Positions 1,225 through 19,775 of a stretch of 26,767 nt of DNA are shown here, piece after piece. How positions within the stretch are numbered: position 1 is the stretch's first letter; each line of letters begins with the position of its first letter. This DNA comes from a virus (taxonomy: Duplodnaviria; Caudoviricetes). The notes under the pieces were generated by a model that was not told the DNA's origin, did not search any database, and saw nothing but the letters and a program-made list of their open reading frames with translations. Where the stretch lies: positions 1 through 26,767 of the IMG/VR virus record IMGVR_UViG_3300005764_000070, one strand, 5' to 3'. Position numbers and translations under genes: made by a program.

Positions 1225-1968
1225 TCACTCGTACGCCGCCAGCCCCAGGTCCGCGGCGAGCTGCGCGAAACGCCCACTGTCCCACCAGCGGTTGCCGCAA
1301 CACTGTGAGCGCGAGGATGGCGAGATGATGTTGTGGCCCATGAGCGATTTAATGCTTGGATACGTCTGCATCGCCAGCCGCGCCACGGCCAGTGTGCTCT
1401 GATACTGCTCCTCGGTCACCGGTGTGACACCCGAACCGTTGTCCTCAGTCTCGATGCTGACCGTCTGGTAGTTCGGATTGGCCGAGTTGCCGACGATGCC
1501 GACCCACTCGTTGCCCGGCTCAAGGATTCCATTCGCCCAGCTTCCGTCGGCGAGCTTCACGTACTGGTGCTGCTCGCCCTTCAGTCCGATGCCATAGTGC
1601 GAGCTGACCTGGCTGGCCGGGTTGCCGAACCACGAGTCGCAGCTGCTGAGCGTGCCGGCCATGGTGTGGACCACGATCGCCACCACCGGCCAGCCAGCGC
1701 GCCCGTTGTAATGGTTCGGGCTGCCGATCCAGACGACGTCCACCTGGGGCGGCTCGGGCGGCAGCACGTACAGTGGCTCCTTGGCCGAGATCTGCCCCTG
1801 CCAGGTCGGATTCAGGCCGTACAGGATCGCCTCGAGCGAGTTGGCGCCGAAGTCCTGGGCCAGCCACCTGGCCTCGTTCATGGCGTTGATGCCGGCCGAG
1901 ATGGCCGCCTGCTGCTCGCTGAGCTGGTTGAGCAGCTGCTCGAGCGTCGCGCCCTCAGCCGTCTGCAT
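1225..1968 (-). CDS. Endolysin, Zn-dependent N-acetylmuramoyl-L-alanine amidase (Amidase_2 type) with an N-terminal helical extension
   Basis: Motifs SPNH, AIVVHTMAG, SSHYGIG, SIETE, GHNII...SQCCG give the His/His/Cys Zn ligands and catalytic Glu pattern. Adjacent to membrane-protein genes. Confidence 0.9.
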   Translation of the reverse strand: MQTAEGATLEQLLNQLSEQQAAISAGINAMNEARWLAQDFGANSLEAILYGLNPTWQGQISAKEPLYVLPPEPPQVDVVWIGSPNHYNGRAGWPVVAIVVHTMAGTLSSCDSWFGNPASQVSSHYGIGLKGEQHQYVKLADGSWANGILEPGNEWVGIVGNSANPNYQTVSIETEDNGSGVTPVTEEQYQSTLAVARLAMQTYPSIKSLMGHNIISPSSRSQCCGNRWWDSGRFAQLAADLGLAAYE

Positions 1969-2140
1969 ATAGAGGTGTCTCAGGCTGCGTCTGGATATCG
2001 GGCGTCAGCGCCTTGACGTAGGCGTCGACGGAGTCCTCGCCCGTCCAGCGCGCCTCGAGCGCAGCCTTCAGCGCCGCAGACTGAAGCGACTGCTGCGCCT
2101 GGAGCTGCTGGATGGCGGCTTCGATCTCTTCGGGGGTCAT
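1955..2140 (-). CDS. 61-aa helical protein, paralogue of the endolysin N-terminal domain
   Basis: ATGA overlap with the upstream gene. Shares QL..QQ...SA...A..EARW...G..S..A....L.P..Q.Q..PLY with endolysin residues ~9-67. Confidence 0.8.
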   Translation of the reverse strand: MTPEEIEAAIQQLQAQQSLQSAALKAALEARWTGEDSVDAYVKALTPDIQTQPETPLYADG

Positions 2141-2439
2141 GCCTGCTGCCTCGCTTTGAACCGCACGTCGCCGGTGTTCCAGTCGATGTCCACGTCGTGC
2201 TCGCCTGCCGGGATCTGGATGCCCGCGTCCTCACACGCCGCCTCGAACGCCTGCTGGTAGATCATGCGCCGTGTCTGGTGGGCGTTGACCGCGGCCTGGG
2301 CAACCTCAGCACTACCCTCCACACCCGCACCCAGTCGCGACAGACGGCGCAGCGGACCGGCCGCCAGACGGGGCTGGTCCTGCACGATCTGCGTCTCGGC
2401 GAGTGATTCGACGTGACCGTTTTCGATGATCTCTTGCAT
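2137..2439 (-). CDS. Hypothetical 100-aa protein, possible fibre chaperone
   Basis: Start reassigned to ATG at 2439 (MQEIIENG...), which has GGAG 7 nt upstream and follows the fibre stop at 2442. Confidence 0.75.
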   Translation of the reverse strand: MQEIIENGHVESLAETQIVQDQPRLAAGPLRRLSRLGAGVEGSAEVAQAAVNAHQTRRMIYQQAFEAACEDAGIQIPAGEHDVDIDWNTGDVRFKARQQA

Positions 2440-2441
2440 GT

Positions 2442-3503
2442 TCACACTCCGAAAGCTATCCACTGGACCTGAACCGTCTGGGTGCCACTCTGGTTGGTCT
2501 GGCACCGAATGACTGCTTGCGTATTGCTGGCAGCCGTCGCGCCGCAGGCGTAGTTGGCCACGTCGCCGCCGACGCTATTGGCCGGTCCGTTGACGATGAT
2601 CACCGGCACGCTCGCGAATGCCCTGGCGTAAGTGATCGTCTGCGCGGCCACGCTGCCGAAAGTGCTGCTCGCACCGCCCGTGGGCGAAAGCGTGACACTG
2701 CCCGACTCGATGTGCGGCTGCTGCGTTGCGTTGGCCGCGACCACGGCGGCGTAGCCGCCGGCCGTCGTCTGCCCAAGGGCCGAGCTACCCGTGTTCTGGG
2801 TGTAGTTGCCGCTCGCGTCGAAGCCCGCGAACTGGACGCTGTTGGCCGCGTTCACGAAGCGCAGCCCCGAGGCGTGCGCTTGCAGCACAGTATTGGCGCC
2901 ATCGAACCACAGCATCCCGCCGCCGCTGCCGAACGTGGCGTTGGTGGGAATCGAGATGCTGCCGCCCGCAACCAGGGGGCTGGTGGGCAACACGTAGTTG
3001 CTGCCGTCGAAGCCGAGGTAATGTGAGCCGTTGCCCAGGAACACGTAGCCCGTGCCGTTGCTGCGGTTGGCGTTCAGGTCACCGGCTGCGGCACTGATGG
3101 CCGGCCCGGCCGTAACGTAGCTGCTCGCCCACACGTAGGTGGCGTTCACCCCGCCGTTAGCCACCAGGTTGCCGGTCACGGTCAGCGTGCTGCTCATGCT
3201 GGCCGCACCGCCGACGGTGAGCGTGCTATCCACCTGAAGCGTGGCCAGGTGGGTGTTGCCCAGCACCGTGGCAGTGCCGTTGACCAGCAGGTTGCGGCCT
3301 ACGGTCAGGTCGCGACTGGGCGACAGATCCTGAAACCCACCTCCCTGGTGTGCACCGGAGTGGTTGTGGCCGGTGGTGGTGTTGAACAAACCGTCGATAG
3401 TGTTGAGCGAGCCGCGCAGCCCGGCGGTCTGCGTCAGATAGTCGGCCGTGTCGTCGTTATCGACGCATAACGCGAGGTTGAGTTCAGCAGTCAGATCGCT
3501 CAT
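2442..3503 (-). CDS. Tail fibre / receptor-binding protein, 353 aa
   Basis: GHNHSG knot-like motif, beta-repeats (LTVG.., L.V.G), Gly/Ser/Thr/Ala-rich composition, and a C-terminal ITYARAF..VPVI...VQWIAFG tip typical of small fibre-end beta domains. Confidence 0.8.
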   Translation of the reverse strand: MSDLTAELNLALCVDNDDTADYLTQTAGLRGSLNTIDGLFNTTTGHNHSGAHQGGGFQDLSPSRDLTVGRNLLVNGTATVLGNTHLATLQVDSTLTVGGAASMSSTLTVTGNLVANGGVNATYVWASSYVTAGPAISAAAGDLNANRSNGTGYVFLGNGSHYLGFDGSNYVLPTSPLVAGGSISIPTNATFGSGGGMLWFDGANTVLQAHASGLRFVNAANSVQFAGFDASGNYTQNTGSSALGQTTAGGYAAVVAANATQQPHIESGSVTLSPTGGASSTFGSVAAQTITYARAFASVPVIIVNGPANSVGGDVANYACGATAASNTQAVIRCQTNQSGTQTVQVQWIAFGV

Positions 3504-5542
3504 AAGGCCCTCAAGCTGGAGACTTTATAGCCACGCAAATCACCCACCCTGGTGCCGCGCAGACGCTTCACGATGCCGTACACGGTCAGGATGCGGAACT
3601 GGGTGGCCTGGATATCGATGCCCCACGAGCGGCCACCACCCGCTTGCATGGGCAGCATGCGCTCCTGATAACCAAAGACGGCTACCTCGTTGATCGTCTC
3701 GTCGGGCAGCTCGATCGCCAGGCTGCCGGGCGATGCGGCGAAGTCCAGCATGTCGGCGTGGAGCTGGTCCGAATTGAGCCGCTGCACCGCACCGTCCAGG
3801 CGCGTGTGAAACCCGTTGGCGTCGATGGTCATCTGCACGTCGCGTTTGAAGGCCGGCACCACGCGCTCGTGGAAAGCCACGATCTCCAACACCGGCGTGT
3901 CGGCCGTGGTGGTGTTCTGGAGCGAGGCCTTGAGCGACAGAGCGTTACCCACCAGATTGGGCGGCGTGTCGATGCGCTGGCCATTGCTGACGAACTCGCC
4001 GAGGTACAACCAGTTGCCCGTGGGGTCCGTCGGCGGAGCTCCAGCCGAGGCCATGATGCGGTAGTAGAGCAGCACCTCGTCGCCCGGGCGCATCACCGGT
4101 CCGAAGACGGAAAAGCCCAGCCAGTGCTTGAGATCCGCCTGGAACATGGCGTGATGCAGTGGGAAGACGATCTCGCTGGGGCCGGTGATGAACTCGGCGC
4201 CCGAGTCGGCCGCCAGCGGCGAGCGCACCAGCTTGATCCACGTCCACGTGCCGTTGTCGAAGCCGATGTACAGACGGTCCTGGCCGCTCGCGCCGGAGAT
4301 GCCCATCGCCGTGACCCGCACGCTGGCCCAGGTCGCCAGGGCGCCGTCGAACTGATCGTCAAACGAGAAGGTGGTGCCCTGGTCCGTCTCGTGCGGCTCC
4401 CAGTTGCCGTAGCTGAGCAGGTAGCTGCTGGTGGTCGCCGTGTTGTACACGCACAGGTAGGCGCGGTAGCCGCCCCAACCGGTGAACGCCTGCACGTCGC
4501 CCCGTACCGGCGAGGCATTGTCCAGCAGCATGCCGGGGCCGCTCGGGTTGAGCGACTCGGCCGGCACGTCCAGGCGATAGAAACTCGGCCCCACGCGGAA
4601 CCAGAGCGAGCCTAACCAGGCTGCGACGGTGCGCCCGTTCTCGAAACTGGCTGGCCCGCGCAAGCCGGGGAACAGGTCGTTGGTGGTGCCGTCCGAGTTC
4701 AGCGTGTAGACGCTGCCATCAGCCTTGAAGATGTGCAGGCGGTTGGCGGTCTGCTTGATGGCCGTGATGTAGTTCGCTGGCGTACCGATCAGGTATGGCC
4801 CACTCCAGTTGCCGGCCACCTTGGGGTCGCTGGTGACCTTGCGCACCACGCTGTTGGCGGTGTCCGCGGCCCACAGCTCAGGCCCGACCACCTCCAGGCG
4901 ATTGGCCAGAAAGCCGCTCGGCAACGCGCAGTTTGTCCATGTCCCGCCGGGCGTGCGCTCCCATAACGCCCCGTTGTTGAACGCCACATATATGCTCGCA
5001 CCAGCCCCGGCGAACCCACCCTGGAAGACGACGGCATCCAGGGGCAGAGCCGGGCTGAAATCGCGATCGACGGGCTGGAGGTTGGTGTCGTCCGTCCTGC
5101 GGTAGACCTTGGTGCCGGCCAGGATGAACTGCACCGGCGAACCGCTGGCGTTGGGCGCGTCGATGAACTCGTACACCTGGCCGCCGGCGGCCGTGTTGGG
5201 GGTGATCGGGTGCGGCAGCGGCCCCTTGCCGAACAGCCCGCCGTCCACCTGAATGTTGTTGCCCCAGTAGTAGCGCCGATCGCCGAAGCTGATCTGCACG
5301 CGCTCGCCGTAGCCTGCCGTCGGCCGCAGCGGAAACGTCCTCTCTCTATAGACGGGCGCGGAGCCATATTCTTGCACCGAGGGCACCACGCTATCGAGCA
5401 TCTGCTGCTTGCGCGCCAGCATCAGCGTGCCGTCCTGCCCGACCACCAGCATCAGGCCGATGCGATCGATGGGATCGCCCAGGATGCTGCCCATGCGGAG
5501 GTGCCACGGCCAGGGGCGTCGGCGACTGCTGAGCAGGCTCAC
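3500..5542 (-). CDS. 680-aa beta-rich virion structural protein, probable short-tail nozzle/stabilisation protein (T7 gp12 / P22 gp10 analogue)
   Basis: Size, repeated short beta-strand/Gly-Asp turns suggestive of propeller blades, and position between adaptor/fibre genes. The function is inferred. Confidence 0.6.
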   Translation of the reverse strand: MSLLSSRRRPWPWHLRMGSILGDPIDRIGLMLVVGQDGTLMLARKQQMLDSVVPSVQEYGSAPVYRERTFPLRPTAGYGERVQISFGDRRYYWGNNIQVDGGLFGKGPLPHPITPNTAAGGQVYEFIDAPNASGSPVQFILAGTKVYRRTDDTNLQPVDRDFSPALPLDAVVFQGGFAGAGASIYVAFNNGALWERTPGGTWTNCALPSGFLANRLEVVGPELWAADTANSVVRKVTSDPKVAGNWSGPYLIGTPANYITAIKQTANRLHIFKADGSVYTLNSDGTTNDLFPGLRGPASFENGRTVAAWLGSLWFRVGPSFYRLDVPAESLNPSGPGMLLDNASPVRGDVQAFTGWGGYRAYLCVYNTATTSSYLLSYGNWEPHETDQGTTFSFDDQFDGALATWASVRVTAMGISGASGQDRLYIGFDNGTWTWIKLVRSPLAADSGAEFITGPSEIVFPLHHAMFQADLKHWLGFSVFGPVMRPGDEVLLYYRIMASAGAPPTDPTGNWLYLGEFVSNGQRIDTPPNLVGNALSLKASLQNTTTADTPVLEIVAFHERVVPAFKRDVQMTIDANGFHTRLDGAVQRLNSDQLHADMLDFAASPGSLAIELPDETINEVAVFGYQERMLPMQAGGGRSWGIDIQATQFRILTVYGIVKRLRGTRVGDLRGYKVSSLRAL

Positions 5543-5826
5543 TAGATGCCGATGATCCTTGAGATGAAGGTCATGTCCACGGCGTCCAGGGCGGTGTCCA
5601 GATCGGCGATGGCGCTTTTGATGGTCGCCTCCTGGCTAGCGTCGAAGTAGTACGGCGCACCCTTCAGATCGGTGACTGCCAACCACGCGGCATCCTGATT
5701 GATGGTGATCTTGCTGGCCGAAAAGCCTCTGAGGTGGAGGCCGATCAGGCCATTGACCTCGTCGGCGCTCCTGGGCTGGGTGCCGATAGTGGCTGGTGGC
5801 GCGGGAGGATCAGTGGGAATGGTCAT
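5542..5826 (-). CDS. Hypothetical 94-aa protein
   Basis: Overlaps both neighbours (ATGA upstream, TAGTG downstream) and has typical codon bias. Confidence 0.75.
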   Translation of the reverse strand: MTIPTDPPAPPATIGTQPRSADEVNGLIGLHLRGFSASKITINQDAAWLAVTDLKGAPYYFDASQEATIKSAIADLDTALDAVDMTFISRIIGI

Positions 5827-14568: not shown

Positions 14569-17500
14569 TTATCTCCCTTGCGCCGCGGCGAGGTGGTCTT
14601 CGATCAGTTTGTCGATCGCTCGATTCTGCTGCTGCTGAATCTGTTCGGAGACGCGATACACCGGGCTGACGATGCCGCCGTAGAGCGACGCAAGCTGGAC
14701 CTCCTCGTTCGTCGGCGGCGGCGCGTGGGTGGGGTCGGCCTTGTAGGCGTTCCAGCGCGCCACGGCGCGGTCGATGTGCGCCTCCTCCTGCGCGTCGGTC
14801 ACGCCCGGGTATTTCTGCGGCAGGCCGGTGTCCGCCGCCGAGTTGGGAATACCCACCTGATCGCGCAGCGTGTCGCGCAGGTGCAGCTGCGCGGTCCGCA
14901 TCATGCTGAGTTTGCGGTCATCGGTCGTGTTCGGGTCGTTGTATTCCGGCAGCTGGCGCACGGTCTTGGCCACCACCGGTTCCTGGAACTCGCCCATGAG
15001 CTGGTCCAGGCGGTCGTACTTGTCGGCGGCCATCTGGCCACCGTAGTTGCGAACGACGCCGGAGGTCAGCCCGCCGATGATGGCGCCCGGCAGCGACGTG
15101 CCTTCCTTGCCCATGGCCGCGTCGGTCACGCCCAGGCCGTAGCGGCCGAGCGTGCCCAGGTTCTCATTAATAAGGAAGTCGATCTGCATCGGCGACACGC
15201 CGTAGGCTTCGCCCAGACGCCGCGCCAGCAGACTGGTGCGGTCGTTGGCCTGGGCCGACGGCGGCAGATCCTGATACGCCTGGGGCACGATCGGCAGCCC
15301 GGTGTAGAAACGGCGGTTGGCCGCGAGCTCCGAGGGCGTCCGCAGCGGTGCCGGAAAGAACGAGCCGGCCACGGAGCTGGGCGAATCACCCGAAATGGGC
15401 GAGATCGTGCTGAGCGCGCCGAGTCCCACGTCCTGTGGCGAACGCGGGTCCCAGTGCGACTGGTCGGGGTCGGCGTGGCTCGAGATCCAGTTGACAGGAT
15501 CGGTAAACGCGGACAACTCGCCCAGCGGGATGCTGAGACGGTTGATCGTCTTGTAGCCGATGCCGTTGGCGTTCTTCTCCGACCCCGGCAGCATGATGAT
15601 GGCGTTCTGGCGACGTTCGTACTCGGGGATGTCGTAGAACGCCGGGTCCTGCTGGTTGCGCTCGTTGTTGGCCGCCACGGCAGCAGCCAGGCCGCCCAGC
15701 CTCAGCCTGGCGATGGGATCGTCGCGCAGGCTACGGCCGATGTTCAGCAGGCCCTGGCTGCGGGCGTTCAGGAACAGCGAGGCCATGTTCAGCTGCTGCA
15801 GGATGTCGCCGCTGCGCTGGAAGTCGACGGTGGCGCGACGTCCGGAGGTAGCCGCTTCCGCCGGCGACTCGCCGGCGAGCAGGTGCTGCTCGAAGGCGGC
15901 CAGGTGGGGTCCCTGCTCGATGACTTCGCCGGCGCGGGTGATGAACTTGAGCTTGAGCGCGTCCATGGCCAGCCGCGCCAGGTCGCTCTGGTCGTGCAGC
16001 ACGAGGCCACCGGTGTCGGCAATGAGCTTGTCGATGTCCTGTGGCGAACGCTGATAGAGCGACTCCATGCCGCCACCGGCCTGGATGTACTGGCGCCACA
16101 GATCGTCCTGCCTGGCAGCCGAGAGCATGCCGCGGGGGATGTTCTTCGCCGTCGTGCCGCCCTCGCGCACAAAGGTAGTGATGAAGTCGCGGATCGCGTT
16201 GGTGGCCAGGAACGAGGGACTCGCTGCGGTCGCGCCCCAGCGCAGGGGCGCGTTCAGCGCCTGGAGCACCTTGCCGAGCGCACCGGGGTCGGTGCCCTCG
16301 AGGTTCTTCATCAGCGACTCGAGGCCCGGCACCTGGCTGACGTCGTAGTAGACGCGCTTGCCGTTCTCGTATTTGCTGACGCGGCCCGGCACGTCGCCGC
16401 TCATGCGCCTGAGCACGGTGGCGATGTTCGACGGCGCACCCAGCAGCTGGCTCATCGGTGCGCCGCCGGGGCCGGCCACCTCCGGACCGGTGACGAGCTG
16501 CATCGGGTTGATGCGTTTGACGAGCGGCGCACCGGCGGCATCCACCAGGGTGGGGTCGTTCATCGCCGCGTCGAGGATCGCGCTGGCGACCCCGTTGCGG
16601 TTGTTGAGCACGTCACTCTGCATGAAGTGGCGCACCAGCGAGCGCAGCGGCTGCTCGGTCGCGTCCTCTGAACCCTCGCCGGCCAGCCGCCGCAGCAAGT
16701 TGTCGGTGGTAACCAGCCGATTGCCGCCGCCGCTCACCCCGCCGGCTTCCTCGTCCAGATACTTCATCAGCACGGTGGGGTTGTAGTGGGGCTGCTCCGT
16801 CATCAGCCGCTGCGCCAGGTCGGGGTCGATCATGCCCGCGTCCACACGCGCCTGGAGTAGACGGGTGGTCGCGTCGTTCAGCATCTTGTCGCCCTGTTGC
16901 AGCGCGGCCCAGCCTTTGGGACCCACCTCCTGCTCGAGCGAGTCGAGCGCGGCCTGGGCGTCCGCGGCGGTCTTGACCCCGCCCGAAGCCTCGCGTGCGC
17001 CGCCGTACAGGTTGGCGACTTCCAGATCGCGCTGGTACTTGCGGAACTCGTTCAGGTACTCGTCGCCTTCTTTCTGACCCAGTACCTCGCGCACGCCACG
17101 CAGCGCCGGCGTGATCTCGTCATCCACCAGCAGCTTGGCCCGTGCGCCGCGGCCGGCGTACGTCGCCAGCAATGATTCGGCATCCATCTCCGGCGTGAAC
17201 GCCGACCCGAGCGCTTCCCTGGCGCGGCCGGACATCTGGTTGATCTGCGCCCACTTGTCGGCGGCTGCCGTGTCGAGCGTGCCGGTGCGCCCGCCCAGCC
17301 CGATCGCGTTGGCCACGCCTTCGGCGACGCGGTCGGGCAGCGACGGCTGCGTGTCCTGGTCACGGAACATCTTGATCGTCGCGTCGCGCACGGCGTTGCC
17401 GGTGGTGCTGGGCTTGCGCGTCGCGGCGTAAGCGACCTCCGGCGGCGAGAGCACGTCGAGCGCGCCCAGCCCCCGTCCGGCAAGTTCGCCGGCTGCCTCC

Positions 17501-19689
17501 CGCGCCAGCCTGGCACCCTGTTCCTCGCCACCCATCGGGATCAGCAAGTTGGCGATCTGGCCGGCGACCTCGCGAGGACCGACCTGTAGCGGCCCGACCT
17601 CGAACCCGAAGTCCTCGTGGCCGGGCACGCCGGCGCGCTCGAGGCCGGCCGTGGCTGCCTCGCCTAGGTTGGGCGCGAGCTGCATCGCGAGCTGGCTCCC
17701 GGCCACGCCGGGATTGAGCTCCGCGCTAATCACGCCCTGTGGGGTCAGGTTCTCGAGCACCTGGCCGACCCTGGACTGCTCCTGCTCGCCGAGGTTACCG
17801 AGGGCGCCGCCCACCGCCTGCTTGACGCCGCCCAGCACAGGCGCCTGGTCGAAATTTTCGCCGGCCTGGCCGAGCACGTCGCGCTGCGACTGAGGCATGG
17901 CGTTCTGGCCGACGGAGTCGATGAAGTCACCGAAGGCGCTCTTGAGCCGCTCCGCCGGAGTCTGGTCCTCCACGATCGCGGGAGGGCTGGTGGATGTGGT
18001 CGTCGACGTCGAGTCCGGCAGGATCGACTCGGTCGGCGTCGCTGGCTGGAACGCGTCGTGGAAGGTCGCGCCCACGTTCGAGAAGAAGTCACCGAAACCT
18101 TGAGCAACGCCACGATCAGCGGTGCTGGTGGCCGGTACCTGCGGGTTGTCGGCAAATAGCGCACCCTGGATGCGGCCCATGCGCTGCTGCATCTGGTCGG
18201 CGGTCATCCACTCAGAGCCGCCCCTGAGGTCCAGCCCGGACTGGCCGACGTGGAACGCGCCACTCTGCGGGTCGTAGCCGTCGGCAAAGAAGTAGTGGCC
18301 AGGGGTGCTGATGGTCACCGGGTTGCCGGTCTGCGCCTCGCGGGCCATGGCGTTCACGTCCGGTCCCACTGCTCGCGTGGCCACGCCGAGTTTGTCCATC
18401 AGCGCTTTTTCGGACCCCAGCCCGGCCATGCCGCCGGCACTCGTCCAGCCCACCGTGGCAGCCAGGTCGGTGGCTTCCCTGAGCGTCGGGTTGCGGCCGT
18501 ACATCTGGGCGAAGCGCACCGCCGCGGCCGGGCCGCACGCAGCATACGCCTCGTCGTTGGAGAGCTGCGGCTGGCCGAACTGGCTGACCTGGCTGGCCGG
18601 CTGCGCGGCTGCCTGCTGCGCCCAGCCACCGGTCCTGGCCAGCAGATCCTGGGGCGTCAGGCCCGGTCCCGCGCTGAGCTCGTTGAAAGCGCTGGCGTAG
18701 TTGCGCCGAGCGGCGGAGGCAGGGTCGGTGAAACCGGCCGGCCGCTCCGCCTGGGCGGCCACCCACGAGGCCTTCTCCGCGCCGGTGAGGCCCTGCGGCG
18801 CCGACTGGTACGCCTTTGCGTACAGCGGGATGATCCTGCTCGCCTGCATCTCGGCGCCCTCGGAGCCGAGGAGCTGCGCCTCGGGGATGCCGGCGCCCAT
18901 GCCGCCCAGGTCGAACTGGAACAGGCCGCGGCCACCGCCACCCTGCTGGACGGCGTTGATGTTCCAGCCGCTCTCCGCCTTGGCTCCGGCCGCGACCGTG
19001 CGAATGAAGTCGGGATCGTTGGCGAGCTCGCCCGGCGCGTTGCGGCTGATCAACTGTCCCAGCCAGTCGGGCACGCCGGAGACGGGAGCCGACGTGCCCG
19101 CTGGTGAGGGGGGAGTGGGCAGCTGAAAGCTCGAGGCGAACTGGTCGAGGTCGGCGCCGCTGCCCTGCGCCGCCGTGAGCGCGTTGCCGACCACGTCGTG
19201 CATGCCCTGACCGGCCTGGTTGATGCTCGAGCCGAAGCTCTGGGCAAAGGCGTCGACGTCGCCGCCGGCCTGCTGCACGGCGTTCAGCCCGTTGCCGAAC
19301 ACGTCGGCGAGCCACGACGAGGACAGGCCCCCACCCCCCGGCTGTGGTGGCGTGGGTGCTGGAGGTGCTGGCGACGGTTCGGGGGGTGCCGGCGCCGCGG
19401 CCTCCGGCTGCTCCGGAGATGGCCCTGACGGAGCAGTCTCGGGCGGCGGCGTAGGCTCAGGAGGGAGCGTCGGCGGCGGCGCGGCCCAGCCGCCGATATT
19501 GGCCAGGCTCTGCTCGATGCTCGGCGGCGTGGGCGGTGGCGGGGTCGCGACGGCGCCCACGGTGGCGCTGCGATCGCCGAGCATCTGGTCCAGGCCGAAG
19601 CCGTCGATCTTCTGCTGGAGCTGCTGCTGGAGTTGCTGCTGCTGGTAGGCGTCCCAGTCCTGCTGGTCGATGTCCGGCAGCATCGTCAC
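14569..19689 (-). CDS. ~1706-aa multidomain internal virion/polyvalent protein: Pro-rich N-terminus, lysozyme-like domain, C39-like peptidase, C-terminal LPD38-like domain
   Basis: AESGWN...GRGLFQ...ERPA; SQF...ACGPAA...GHY..ADGYD; YDIPEYER...P..E..AN..FYTG.PIVP...TS.LA..LG....SP.QID.LI...LG.LG. Start is GTG 19689 (GTGA overlap) or ATG 19683, not 19743. Confidence 0.85.
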   Translation of the reverse strand: MTMLPDIDQQDWDAYQQQQLQQQLQQKIDGFGLDQMLGDRSATVGAVATPPPPTPPSIEQSLANIGGWAAPPPTLPPEPTPPPETAPSGPSPEQPEAAAPAPPEPSPAPPAPTPPQPGGGGLSSSWLADVFGNGLNAVQQAGGDVDAFAQSFGSSINQAGQGMHDVVGNALTAAQGSGADLDQFASSFQLPTPPSPAGTSAPVSGVPDWLGQLISRNAPGELANDPDFIRTVAAGAKAESGWNINAVQQGGGGRGLFQFDLGGMGAGIPEAQLLGSEGAEMQASRIIPLYAKAYQSAPQGLTGAEKASWVAAQAERPAGFTDPASAARRNYASAFNELSAGPGLTPQDLLARTGGWAQQAAAQPASQVSQFGQPQLSNDEAYAACGPAAAVRFAQMYGRNPTLREATDLAATVGWTSAGGMAGLGSEKALMDKLGVATRAVGPDVNAMAREAQTGNPVTISTPGHYFFADGYDPQSGAFHVGQSGLDLRGGSEWMTADQMQQRMGRIQGALFADNPQVPATSTADRGVAQGFGDFFSNVGATFHDAFQPATPTESILPDSTSTTTSTSPPAIVEDQTPAERLKSAFGDFIDSVGQNAMPQSQRDVLGQAGENFDQAPVLGGVKQAVGGALGNLGEQEQSRVGQVLENLTPQGVISAELNPGVAGSQLAMQLAPNLGEAATAGLERAGVPGHEDFGFEVGPLQVGPREVAGQIANLLIPMGGEEQGARLAREAAGELAGRGLGALDVLSPPEVAYAATRKPSTTGNAVRDATIKMFRDQDTQPSLPDRVAEGVANAIGLGGRTGTLDTAAADKWAQINQMSGRAREALGSAFTPEMDAESLLATYAGRGARAKLLVDDEITPALRGVREVLGQKEGDEYLNEFRKYQRDLEVANLYGGAREASGGVKTAADAQAALDSLEQEVGPKGWAALQQGDKMLNDATTRLLQARVDAGMIDPDLAQRLMTEQPHYNPTVLMKYLDEEAGGVSGGGNRLVTTDNLLRRLAGEGSEDATEQPLRSLVRHFMQSDVLNNRNGVASAILDAAMNDPTLVDAAGAPLVKRINPMQLVTGPEVAGPGGAPMSQLLGAPSNIATVLRRMSGDVPGRVSKYENGKRVYYDVSQVPGLESLMKNLEGTDPGALGKVLQALNAPLRWGATAASPSFLATNAIRDFITTFVREGGTTAKNIPRGMLSAARQDDLWRQYIQAGGGMESLYQRSPQDIDKLIADTGGLVLHDQSDLARLAMDALKLKFITRAGEVIEQGPHLAAFEQHLLAGESPAEAATSGRRATVDFQRSGDILQQLNMASLFLNARSQGLLNIGRSLRDDPIARLRLGGLAAAVAANNERNQQDPAFYDIPEYERRQNAIIMLPGSEKNANGIGYKTINRLSIPLGELSAFTDPVNWISSHADPDQSHWDPRSPQDVGLGALSTISPISGDSPSSVAGSFFPAPLRTPSELAANRRFYTGLPIVPQAYQDLPPSAQANDRTSLLARRLGEAYGVSPMQIDFLINENLGTLGRYGLGVTDAAMGKEGTSLPGAIIGGLTSGVVRNYGGQMAADKYDRLDQLMGEFQEPVVAKTVRQLPEYNDPNTTDDRKLSMMRTAQLHLRDTLRDQVGIPNSAADTGLPQKYPGVTDAQEEAHIDRAVARWNAYKADPTHAPPPTNEEVQLASLYGGIVSPVYRVSEQIQQQQNRAIDKLIEDHLAAAQGR

Positions 19690-19775
19690 GGGTTCATGCT
19701 CCGCATGGCGATGATGACGATCAACGCCACCAGCGTGCCCCACGCGACGAAGATGCGGAACTGGTCATCGCTCAC
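19686..19775 (-). CDS. 29-aa single-TM peptide
   Basis: Not in the track. MSDDQFRIFVAWGTLVALIVIIAMRSMNP, with GTGA overlaps at both ends and GC-rich third positions. Confidence 0.7.
   Translation of the reverse strand: MSDDQFRIFVAWGTLVALIVIIAMRSMNP

Follow-up and report, generated by a model that had tools for sequence, protein, structure and literature searches.

A phage amidase and the small protein encoded upstream of it share a candidate scaffold domain that relatives may supply in free form by duplication, internal initiation or frameshifting

The window analysed here (the whole 26,767-nt stretch of Caudoviricetes DNA presented above, from a linear virus record that is 62% complete) encodes an amidase endolysin whose N-terminal domain also exists as a free protein, specified by a small gene immediately upstream. 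On balance, this pair and its relatives favour the view that a previously undescribed scaffold domain is required both free and enzyme-bound, and that this state has been reached by gene duplication, by an internal translation start and by -1 ribosomal frameshifting within one family.

The minus strand of the window carries terminase and capsid genes, a giant LPD38 protein and tail-fibre genes, after which come a 61-aa ORF (1955-2140), a 247-aa ORF (1225-1968) and three small hydrophobic ORFs. The giant protein (14569-19743; 1724 aa), which combines an LPD38 domain with a weak Peptidase_C39_2 match, is probably a large ejected virion protein. The 61-aa and 247-aa ORFs, both on the minus strand, overlap by 14 nt, as the first-pass annotation had read them. 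A GAGG (2149-2152, minus strand), Shine-Dalgarno-like as judged from the letters alone, precedes the ATG of the small gene by 8 nt; the endolysin starts within the small gene, at an ATG 14 nt from its end that has no clear Shine-Dalgarno site, and the two genes may be translationally coupled. Downstream of the endolysin, and likewise on the minus strand, lie genes for hydrophobic membrane proteins of 59 aa (1042-1221) and 51 aa (887-1042), both putatively holin-like, and for a 70-aa protein with a single hydrophobic segment at its C-terminus (667-879). No family match was found for the holin-like ORFs of the window, and their identity as holins is presumptive. Genes like the 51-aa and 70-aa ORFs were also found 3' of related lysins, and the 70-aa protein is probably a member of the lysis cassette. 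With tail genes before it and three small hydrophobic ORFs after it, the position of the amidase fits a phage lysis cassette.

Residues 6-58 of the 61-aa protein align with residues 9-67 of the amidase at 22 of 59 positions (37% identity; BLASTP E 9e-8), a likeness that had been proposed by eye. Four schemes of 10,000 shuffles each gave no score as high as their Smith-Waterman score of 79 (the maximum under the strictest, a local-window shuffle, was 78), and among 364 six-frame segments of the window the best score beyond the small gene itself and the amidase was 44. The alignment is significant by these shuffling statistics, which rule out a chance resemblance, and the sequence comparison confirms the 61-aa protein as a paralogue of amidase residues 9-67. 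The motif EARW, initially put forward as the signature of the domain, was not borne out, as the wider consensus (L..QQ..QT.AL...LEGRW.G..S..A.L.AL) reads LEGRW instead. The small gene has 56 other homologues of 58-65 aa and a pooled pN/pS of 0.23, and is therefore considered real; the corresponding value for the fused copy is 0.34 (14 loci each), and both copies are under purifying selection. An AF2 model of the small protein (pLDDT 92) consists of a helix at residues 3-28, a second helix at 38-45 and an extended C-terminal tail. In the endolysin, the fused copy delimited by the alignment and the predicted fold (residues 9-67; 1768-1944, minus strand) is followed by a proline-rich linker (residues 68-75; 1744-1767, minus strand), modelled as coil with lower pLDDT, and by an Amidase_2/AmpD-like catalytic domain (1231-1743, minus strand).

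The catalytic assignment is supported by a match to Amidase_2 (PF01510) in residues 94-225 (57.3 bits versus a cut-off of 26), by a predicted fold whose best Foldseek match is AmpD (E 6.8e-10), and by residues H101, E173, H212 and C224, which are invariant in 62 homologues and which we take to have catalytic or metal-site roles by analogy with AmpD and T7 lysozyme. The predicted fold has nothing after the catalytic domain, in agreement with the earlier reading that the enzyme lacks a C-terminal wall-binding domain. The catalytic domain is predicted to have the fold common to AmpD, PlyL and T7 lysozyme, whereas an unnamed N-terminal domain replaces a known wall-binding domain. The domain was absent from 21 of the 120 closest amidases, of which 14 keep a short N-terminal peptide and seven, which may be truncated, are catalytic-only; the enzyme clade can therefore manage without it. 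In the 14, the peptide resembles the P-L-Y tail of the domain. One relative (L007:5387-6213) encodes a second amidase of the same clade that is domain-less and has a free 76-aa LGFP-like protein directly upstream (Atlas 0.97; Pfam E 0.011, below cut-off). A role in cell-wall anchoring has been suggested for the LGFP module, according to the accessible text of PMC6116114. This arrangement, together with a docking peptide, is possibly a second type of two-gene lysin.

A profile built from free and fused copies recovered 68 representatives at 50% clustering, or 67 after P0162, a beta-propeller false match, was dropped. Domain hits numbered 43 in free proteins (mostly 55-105 aa), 13 in N-terminal fusions and 13 in C-terminal fusions, and the domain is attached at either terminus of several unrelated hydrolase folds. 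Partners above Pfam cut-offs were Amidase_2, GH19, NlpC/P60 and an Rv2525c-like hydrolase, and weak matches or motifs added C39-like peptidases, TIM-barrel hydrolases and an SLT-like domain. Natural tandem copies in one chain occur in P0185, where they precede NlpC/P60, and in P0188. No known family for the domain was found in Pfam or PHROGs, tblastn gave no match among 50,697 GenBank phage records, and the best ESM Atlas match (0.82) is treated as a lead only. Sequence matches in the PDB proved to be beta-propeller repeats that have a brief motif in common with the domain; none contained a single stretch that reached significance, and they were rejected. Fold searches gave no Foldseek match in the PDB, none under E 0.001 in BFVD and a best Z of 5.2 in VIA, to generic helical hairpins, negatives that do not make the fold new. 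No likeness of the domain to known wall-binding folds was found.

Bacterial carriers were confined to a single Chloroflexota order. An HMM scan identified the domain in nine of 39 genomes of this order, a class-wide scan of 66 genomes found nine carriers and a phylum-wide sample of 401 genomes found four, none of them outside it; the phage host therefore likely lies in the same lineage, which is known here from assembled genomes alone. In the sequenced flanks examined, the chromosomal loci had no evident phage genes, and neither a signal peptide nor an evident holin accompanied the chromosomal copies. A syntenic chromosomal copy of a frameshift-type gene, present in at least five host genomes (L057, L062, L063, L069, L070; also L064-L066), adjoins a divergently oriented gene that we presume to be SAF-like. 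Upstream of it is a conserved direct repeat, ATTGAGTG in two copies, which is partly degenerate in some loci and may be a promoter or operator; the syntenic copy itself may be a domesticated autolysin. Other chromosomal pairs sit among ordinary host genes. At least two different pairs of free and fused genes occur in tandem in G008:C283 (L061, L071) and in L103, as C39-like then amidase or C39-like then GH19, and one host or phage can therefore carry several enzyme versions of the module. Clusters of WXG100 genes were present in four of the 39 genomes of the order (G009, G011, G012 and G030), which suggests that type VII secretion is patchy within it.

An internal start cannot free a domain that lies at the N-terminus of its enzyme, and for such fusions duplication or frameshifting therefore remain. 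The first of these is the arrangement in the window, and it is conserved: all 45 of the N-terminal fusion clusters defined at 90% identity (amidase in 25, C39-like in 13, GH19 in six and one without an assigned enzyme) have a free copy upstream, as do 25 of 25 at 70%. Many metagenome loci in this set were retrieved through a free-type motif, but it also takes in every locus retrieved by searching with the amidase or with the fused domain. The HMM scan of the 39 genomes gave the same picture (5/5 N-terminal fusions with a free copy upstream). The sole locus without a free copy (L067) is a clipped view of L061. Across 54 pairs the downstream gene lies in the +1 frame in 18, the -1 frame in 35 and the 0 frame in one, and overlaps are mostly 1, 4, 8 or 14 nt; these varying frames and short overlaps point to coupling, and not to frameshifting, at paired genes. 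A frameshift fusion of the two window genes was accordingly rejected, as frames vary over the 54 pairs and an A/T-type slippery site was found in none of 48 partnered free genes.

Free copies resemble each other (mean identity 57%) more than their own fused partners (35%), and in 27 of 27 pairs the closest relative of the free member was a free copy from a different pair. One well-supported free clade, in a tree of 63 columns with many forks open, takes in both amidase and GH19 pairs. Judged from these comparisons, the duplication is old, the free and fused copies are separate lineages, and the pair persisted through a swap from amidase to GH19. In L133:443-1273 (also L126 and L128), an insert of ~830 nt separates the free gene from the fusion. 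Its opposite strand carries a gene for an endonuclease that is HNH-like by a motif picked out by eye, and the 3' end of the free gene is duplicated; the insert resembles a homing element under which the target gene stays whole. In L050:3990-4191 and P0099, the free gene is broken or fused by what appear to be assembly errors of a single base, and P0099 seems to be an artefact in which free and fused copies are read through as one, not a real tandem.

C-terminal fusions may produce the free copy from an internal start. A Met was present at the position where free proteins begin in 11 of 13 C-terminal fusions versus 44 of 133 background windows (p 4e-4), and a Met together with an encodable GGAGG/AGGAG in eight of 13 versus seven of 133 (p 2e-6), counts that are protein-level for 12 of the 13 and DNA-level for one (L035). 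The remaining two have Val at the start of the domain, and in L035, the one Val case with DNA, the sequence reads GGAGG, 6 nt, GTG. Eight of ten C-terminal fusions looked up derived from Logan assemblies, and no DNA of further examples was found with P0176 or the C-terminal-fusion alignment as query. The L035 locus (3170-5779) has three hydrolase genes in a row. The N-terminus of the first resembles the domain faintly, at a score under the HMM threshold; the second ends in the domain and carries the internal start; the third is GH25-like and follows a slippery site and a hairpin in the -1 frame.

For relatives in which the domain and the enzyme lie in different frames, -1 ribosomal frameshifting is predicted. 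Of 22 partner-less free genes (clusters without a domain-bearing fusion downstream), 20 carry an A/T-type slippery heptamer within their final 15 codons, versus none of 48 partnered ones. The loci are related, and the p-values quoted above therefore overstate independence (at 70% identity, 25 fusion clusters and about eight frameshift clusters remain). Behind the heptamer of the partner-less genes, a lytic enzyme lies in the -1 frame. For example, the site C CCA AAA occurs in 19 metagenome loci and is followed by a C39-like peptidase in the -1 frame; in the 17 of these analysed, which range from 41 to 96% DNA identity, its codons are unchanged throughout (17/17) and other invariant residues do vary synonymously. 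In these relatives, the X XXY YYZ heptamer is thus conserved more strictly than its codons require, and the second ORF occupies the -1 frame. That frame is closed nine or fewer codons upstream of the site in seven of the 17 loci, a conserved W-D-P stretch lies ahead of the first Met, and 12 of the 17 have a GGAG/GAGG whose last base is 10-14 nt before the site. An upstream Shine-Dalgarno sequence at such spacing (9-14 nt) is a described stimulator of -1 frameshifting, according to the available part of PMC5009743. Seven other loci carry C CCT TTC/T before an amidase or GH25-like enzyme, and a hairpin lies just after C CCT TTC in L035 (z -2.2) and in L049 (z -0.7, not significant).

Conventional initiation would be served by several features that count against this prediction. 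A GTG overlaps the stop of the free gene in nine of the 17 C CCA AAA loci, a Met occurs nine codons further on in all 17, and an ATG or GTG lies within 14 codons in six of the seven C CCT TTY loci; in addition, the heptamer is absent from L066, and the locus L065 is broken. P-K or P-F is also the ending of many other free proteins and C-terminal fusions, which may hint at a wider use of frameshifting.

Wherever DNA could be examined, the domain appears in free as well as fused form, and three unrelated devices appear to yield the same two products, from which we infer that the products act together and that their ratio matters. A first-pass proposal had described a two-gene lysin whose shared domain hetero-oligomerises; the shared domain and the conserved pair stand, and for the hetero-oligomer the evidence is a structural model. 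A complex of two free domains and one fused domain gave weak support, scoring 0.39 versus 0.14 for the best control, on a scale where 116 of 157 solved pairs and two of 215 mismatched pairs attained the mark and where scores of 0.60 or less took in only 18 solved pairs plus both mismatches; contact agreement was at least 55% and partner pLDDT at least 47. It is quite probable that the free and fused domains co-assemble. By analogy with CTP1L, Lys170 and PlyC, we lean more modestly towards a mixed oligomer of free and fused copies that holds the enzyme on the envelope of the Chloroflexota host. In such a complex, free copies would join the fused copy, presumably in excess over it, since no clear ribosome-binding site precedes the downstream gene and only some ribosomes usually shift frame. 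The oligomer core could consist of the long Gln-rich helices, several domains would give avid wall binding to one or few catalytic domains, and the downstream holin-like proteins would release the complex. Targeting to the wall fits the movement of the module between hydrolase folds, at either end, within one host lineage, the lack of any other binding domain in the carrier enzymes, and the free LGFP-like protein of L007, which takes the place of the domain before a domain-less paralogue. However, wall targeting alone leaves the chromosomal copies, which have no evident export route, unexplained.

Those copies, with neither signal peptide nor evident holin, sit more easily with a reading that we consider fairly unlikely, in which the free and fused pair forms a holin-independent export or chaperone module resembling Ms6 Gp1 or WXG100 pairs. 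Ms6 Gp1 is a lysis cassette protein that binds the first 60 residues of LysA, as described in the accessible text of PMC6116114. The WXG100 pairs of type VII systems share with the domain a helix, W-x-G turn, helix layout and the placement of a small gene directly before a larger one, many domain members have W-x-G at the hairpin turn, and WXG100 genes scored above cut-off in three of nine domain-bearing genomes versus one of 30 others. In contrast, WXG100 proteins have about 90-100 residues versus 60 here, the second helix of the domain is very short (just 8 residues), its W-to-G spacing runs from 1 to 5 residues, and profile similarity is absent (hhalign probability 3.4% with nine host WXG100 proteins). 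G002 and G008, which are incomplete genomes, have five domain copies each and no WXG100 match, and PF06013 was not among the best 25 of 28 weak Pfam families for the domain. WXG100 membership was rejected on the length of 61 aa, the helices at 3-28 and 38-45 and the hhalign result. The broader export reading must also accommodate phage copies that adjoin holin-like genes and a domain that occurs at either terminus.

It is also possible, if decidedly improbable, that the free domain acts as a brake, sequestering the fused domain and holding the enzyme inactive or off the wall until lysis, with the free-to-fused ratio setting the timing. All three coding routes would link free and fused levels, the two copies have diverged into separate lineages, and the activity of CTP1L is tuned by its free domain (available part of PMC4777826); but the proline-rich linker and the variety of unrelated catalytic folds argue against a specific block of the active site, and two-product lysins studied so far become more active with their free subunit, as far as described in the available parts of PMC4777826 and PMC9430671. 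A virion role, with the oligomer tethering the enzyme to the tail for entry, had been raised in the first-pass annotation and has become very hard to sustain: the pair does come after tail-fibre genes in the window, but phage copies are flanked by holin-like genes, the syntenic chromosomal copy is kept in at least five host genomes, other pairs sit among ordinary host genes, and the chromosomal loci lack evident phage genes. Partial duplications are common in phage lysis modules, but a small gene left over from one without a joint role is barely credible given its pN/pS of 0.23, its retention in 45 of 45 clusters, its old separate lineage and the two further routes to the same product set.

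If the domain is indeed supplied by these three routes, the predicted frameshift genes would include the first frameshift-built endolysin found in the literature surveyed. None was found in titles and abstract openings, and the words 'endolysin' and 'lysin' are absent from the available part of a frameshifting review (PMC5009743). Titles and abstract openings likewise held no prior description of the domain, or of a lysin's own domain duplicated as a free subunit, with subscription papers and supplements outside the scope of the survey. An internal start and a frameshift in the same gene, as at L035, would yield up to four products and place two different hydrolases on one oligomer. One domain family with seemingly three interchangeable coding routes would provide comparative evidence for selection on subunit ratio, and would add paralogue duplication and -1 frameshifting to the ways in which lysin complexes are encoded. 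Annotation pipelines would overlook such subunits and split frameshifted lysins. The 60-residue module, portable and able to accept many hydrolases at either end, could also serve as a probe for the poorly known envelope of this Chloroflexota lineage.

Among known systems, PlyC of phage C1 resembles the window in having a free non-catalytic subunit from a separate gene. To our knowledge, PlyCA has no copy of PlyCB of its own, whereas the free subunit of the window is paralogous to the N-terminal part of the enzyme that it accompanies. PlyCB forms a ring of eight subunits that binds the wall and is expressed separately from PlyCA, and the separate-gene arrangement is as given in the accessible portion of PMC6023083; PlyCB was not among the matches listed in sequence or fold searches with the domain. 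Ms6 Gp1 is similar in being a small cassette protein that binds an Amidase_2 endolysin within its first ~60 residues, but is set apart as an export chaperone of LysA that is not described as a copy of the LysA N-terminus in the available text of PMC6116114.

The closest parallels are two-polypeptide endolysins of the CTP1L/Lys170 type, in which the non-catalytic domain is both enzyme-fused and free, as in the window, and whose internal-start signature matches the C-terminal members of this family. According to the available parts of PMC4777826 and PMC9430671, their subunit ratios are 2:2 in CTP1L, CD27L and CS74L, 1:3 in Lys170 and LysIME-EF1 and 1:5 in LysP7951, and the free subunits of hetero-oligomeric lysins of the CTP1L kind are wall-binding domains. 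Several features differ. The free product of the CTP1L/Lys170 type arises from an in-frame internal start and the shared domain is C-terminal, whereas the window has a separate gene in a different frame, an N-terminal domain (residues 9-67 of 247) and a free copy that is a diverged paralogue; in addition, a -1 frameshift is predicted for some relatives, the domain is without a Pfam or PHROG family, and the likely hosts are Chloroflexota. By analogy, the system would work like the two-polypeptide endolysins but falls outside the single-gene class, because its free subunit comes from a paralogous gene and its shared domain is N-terminal.
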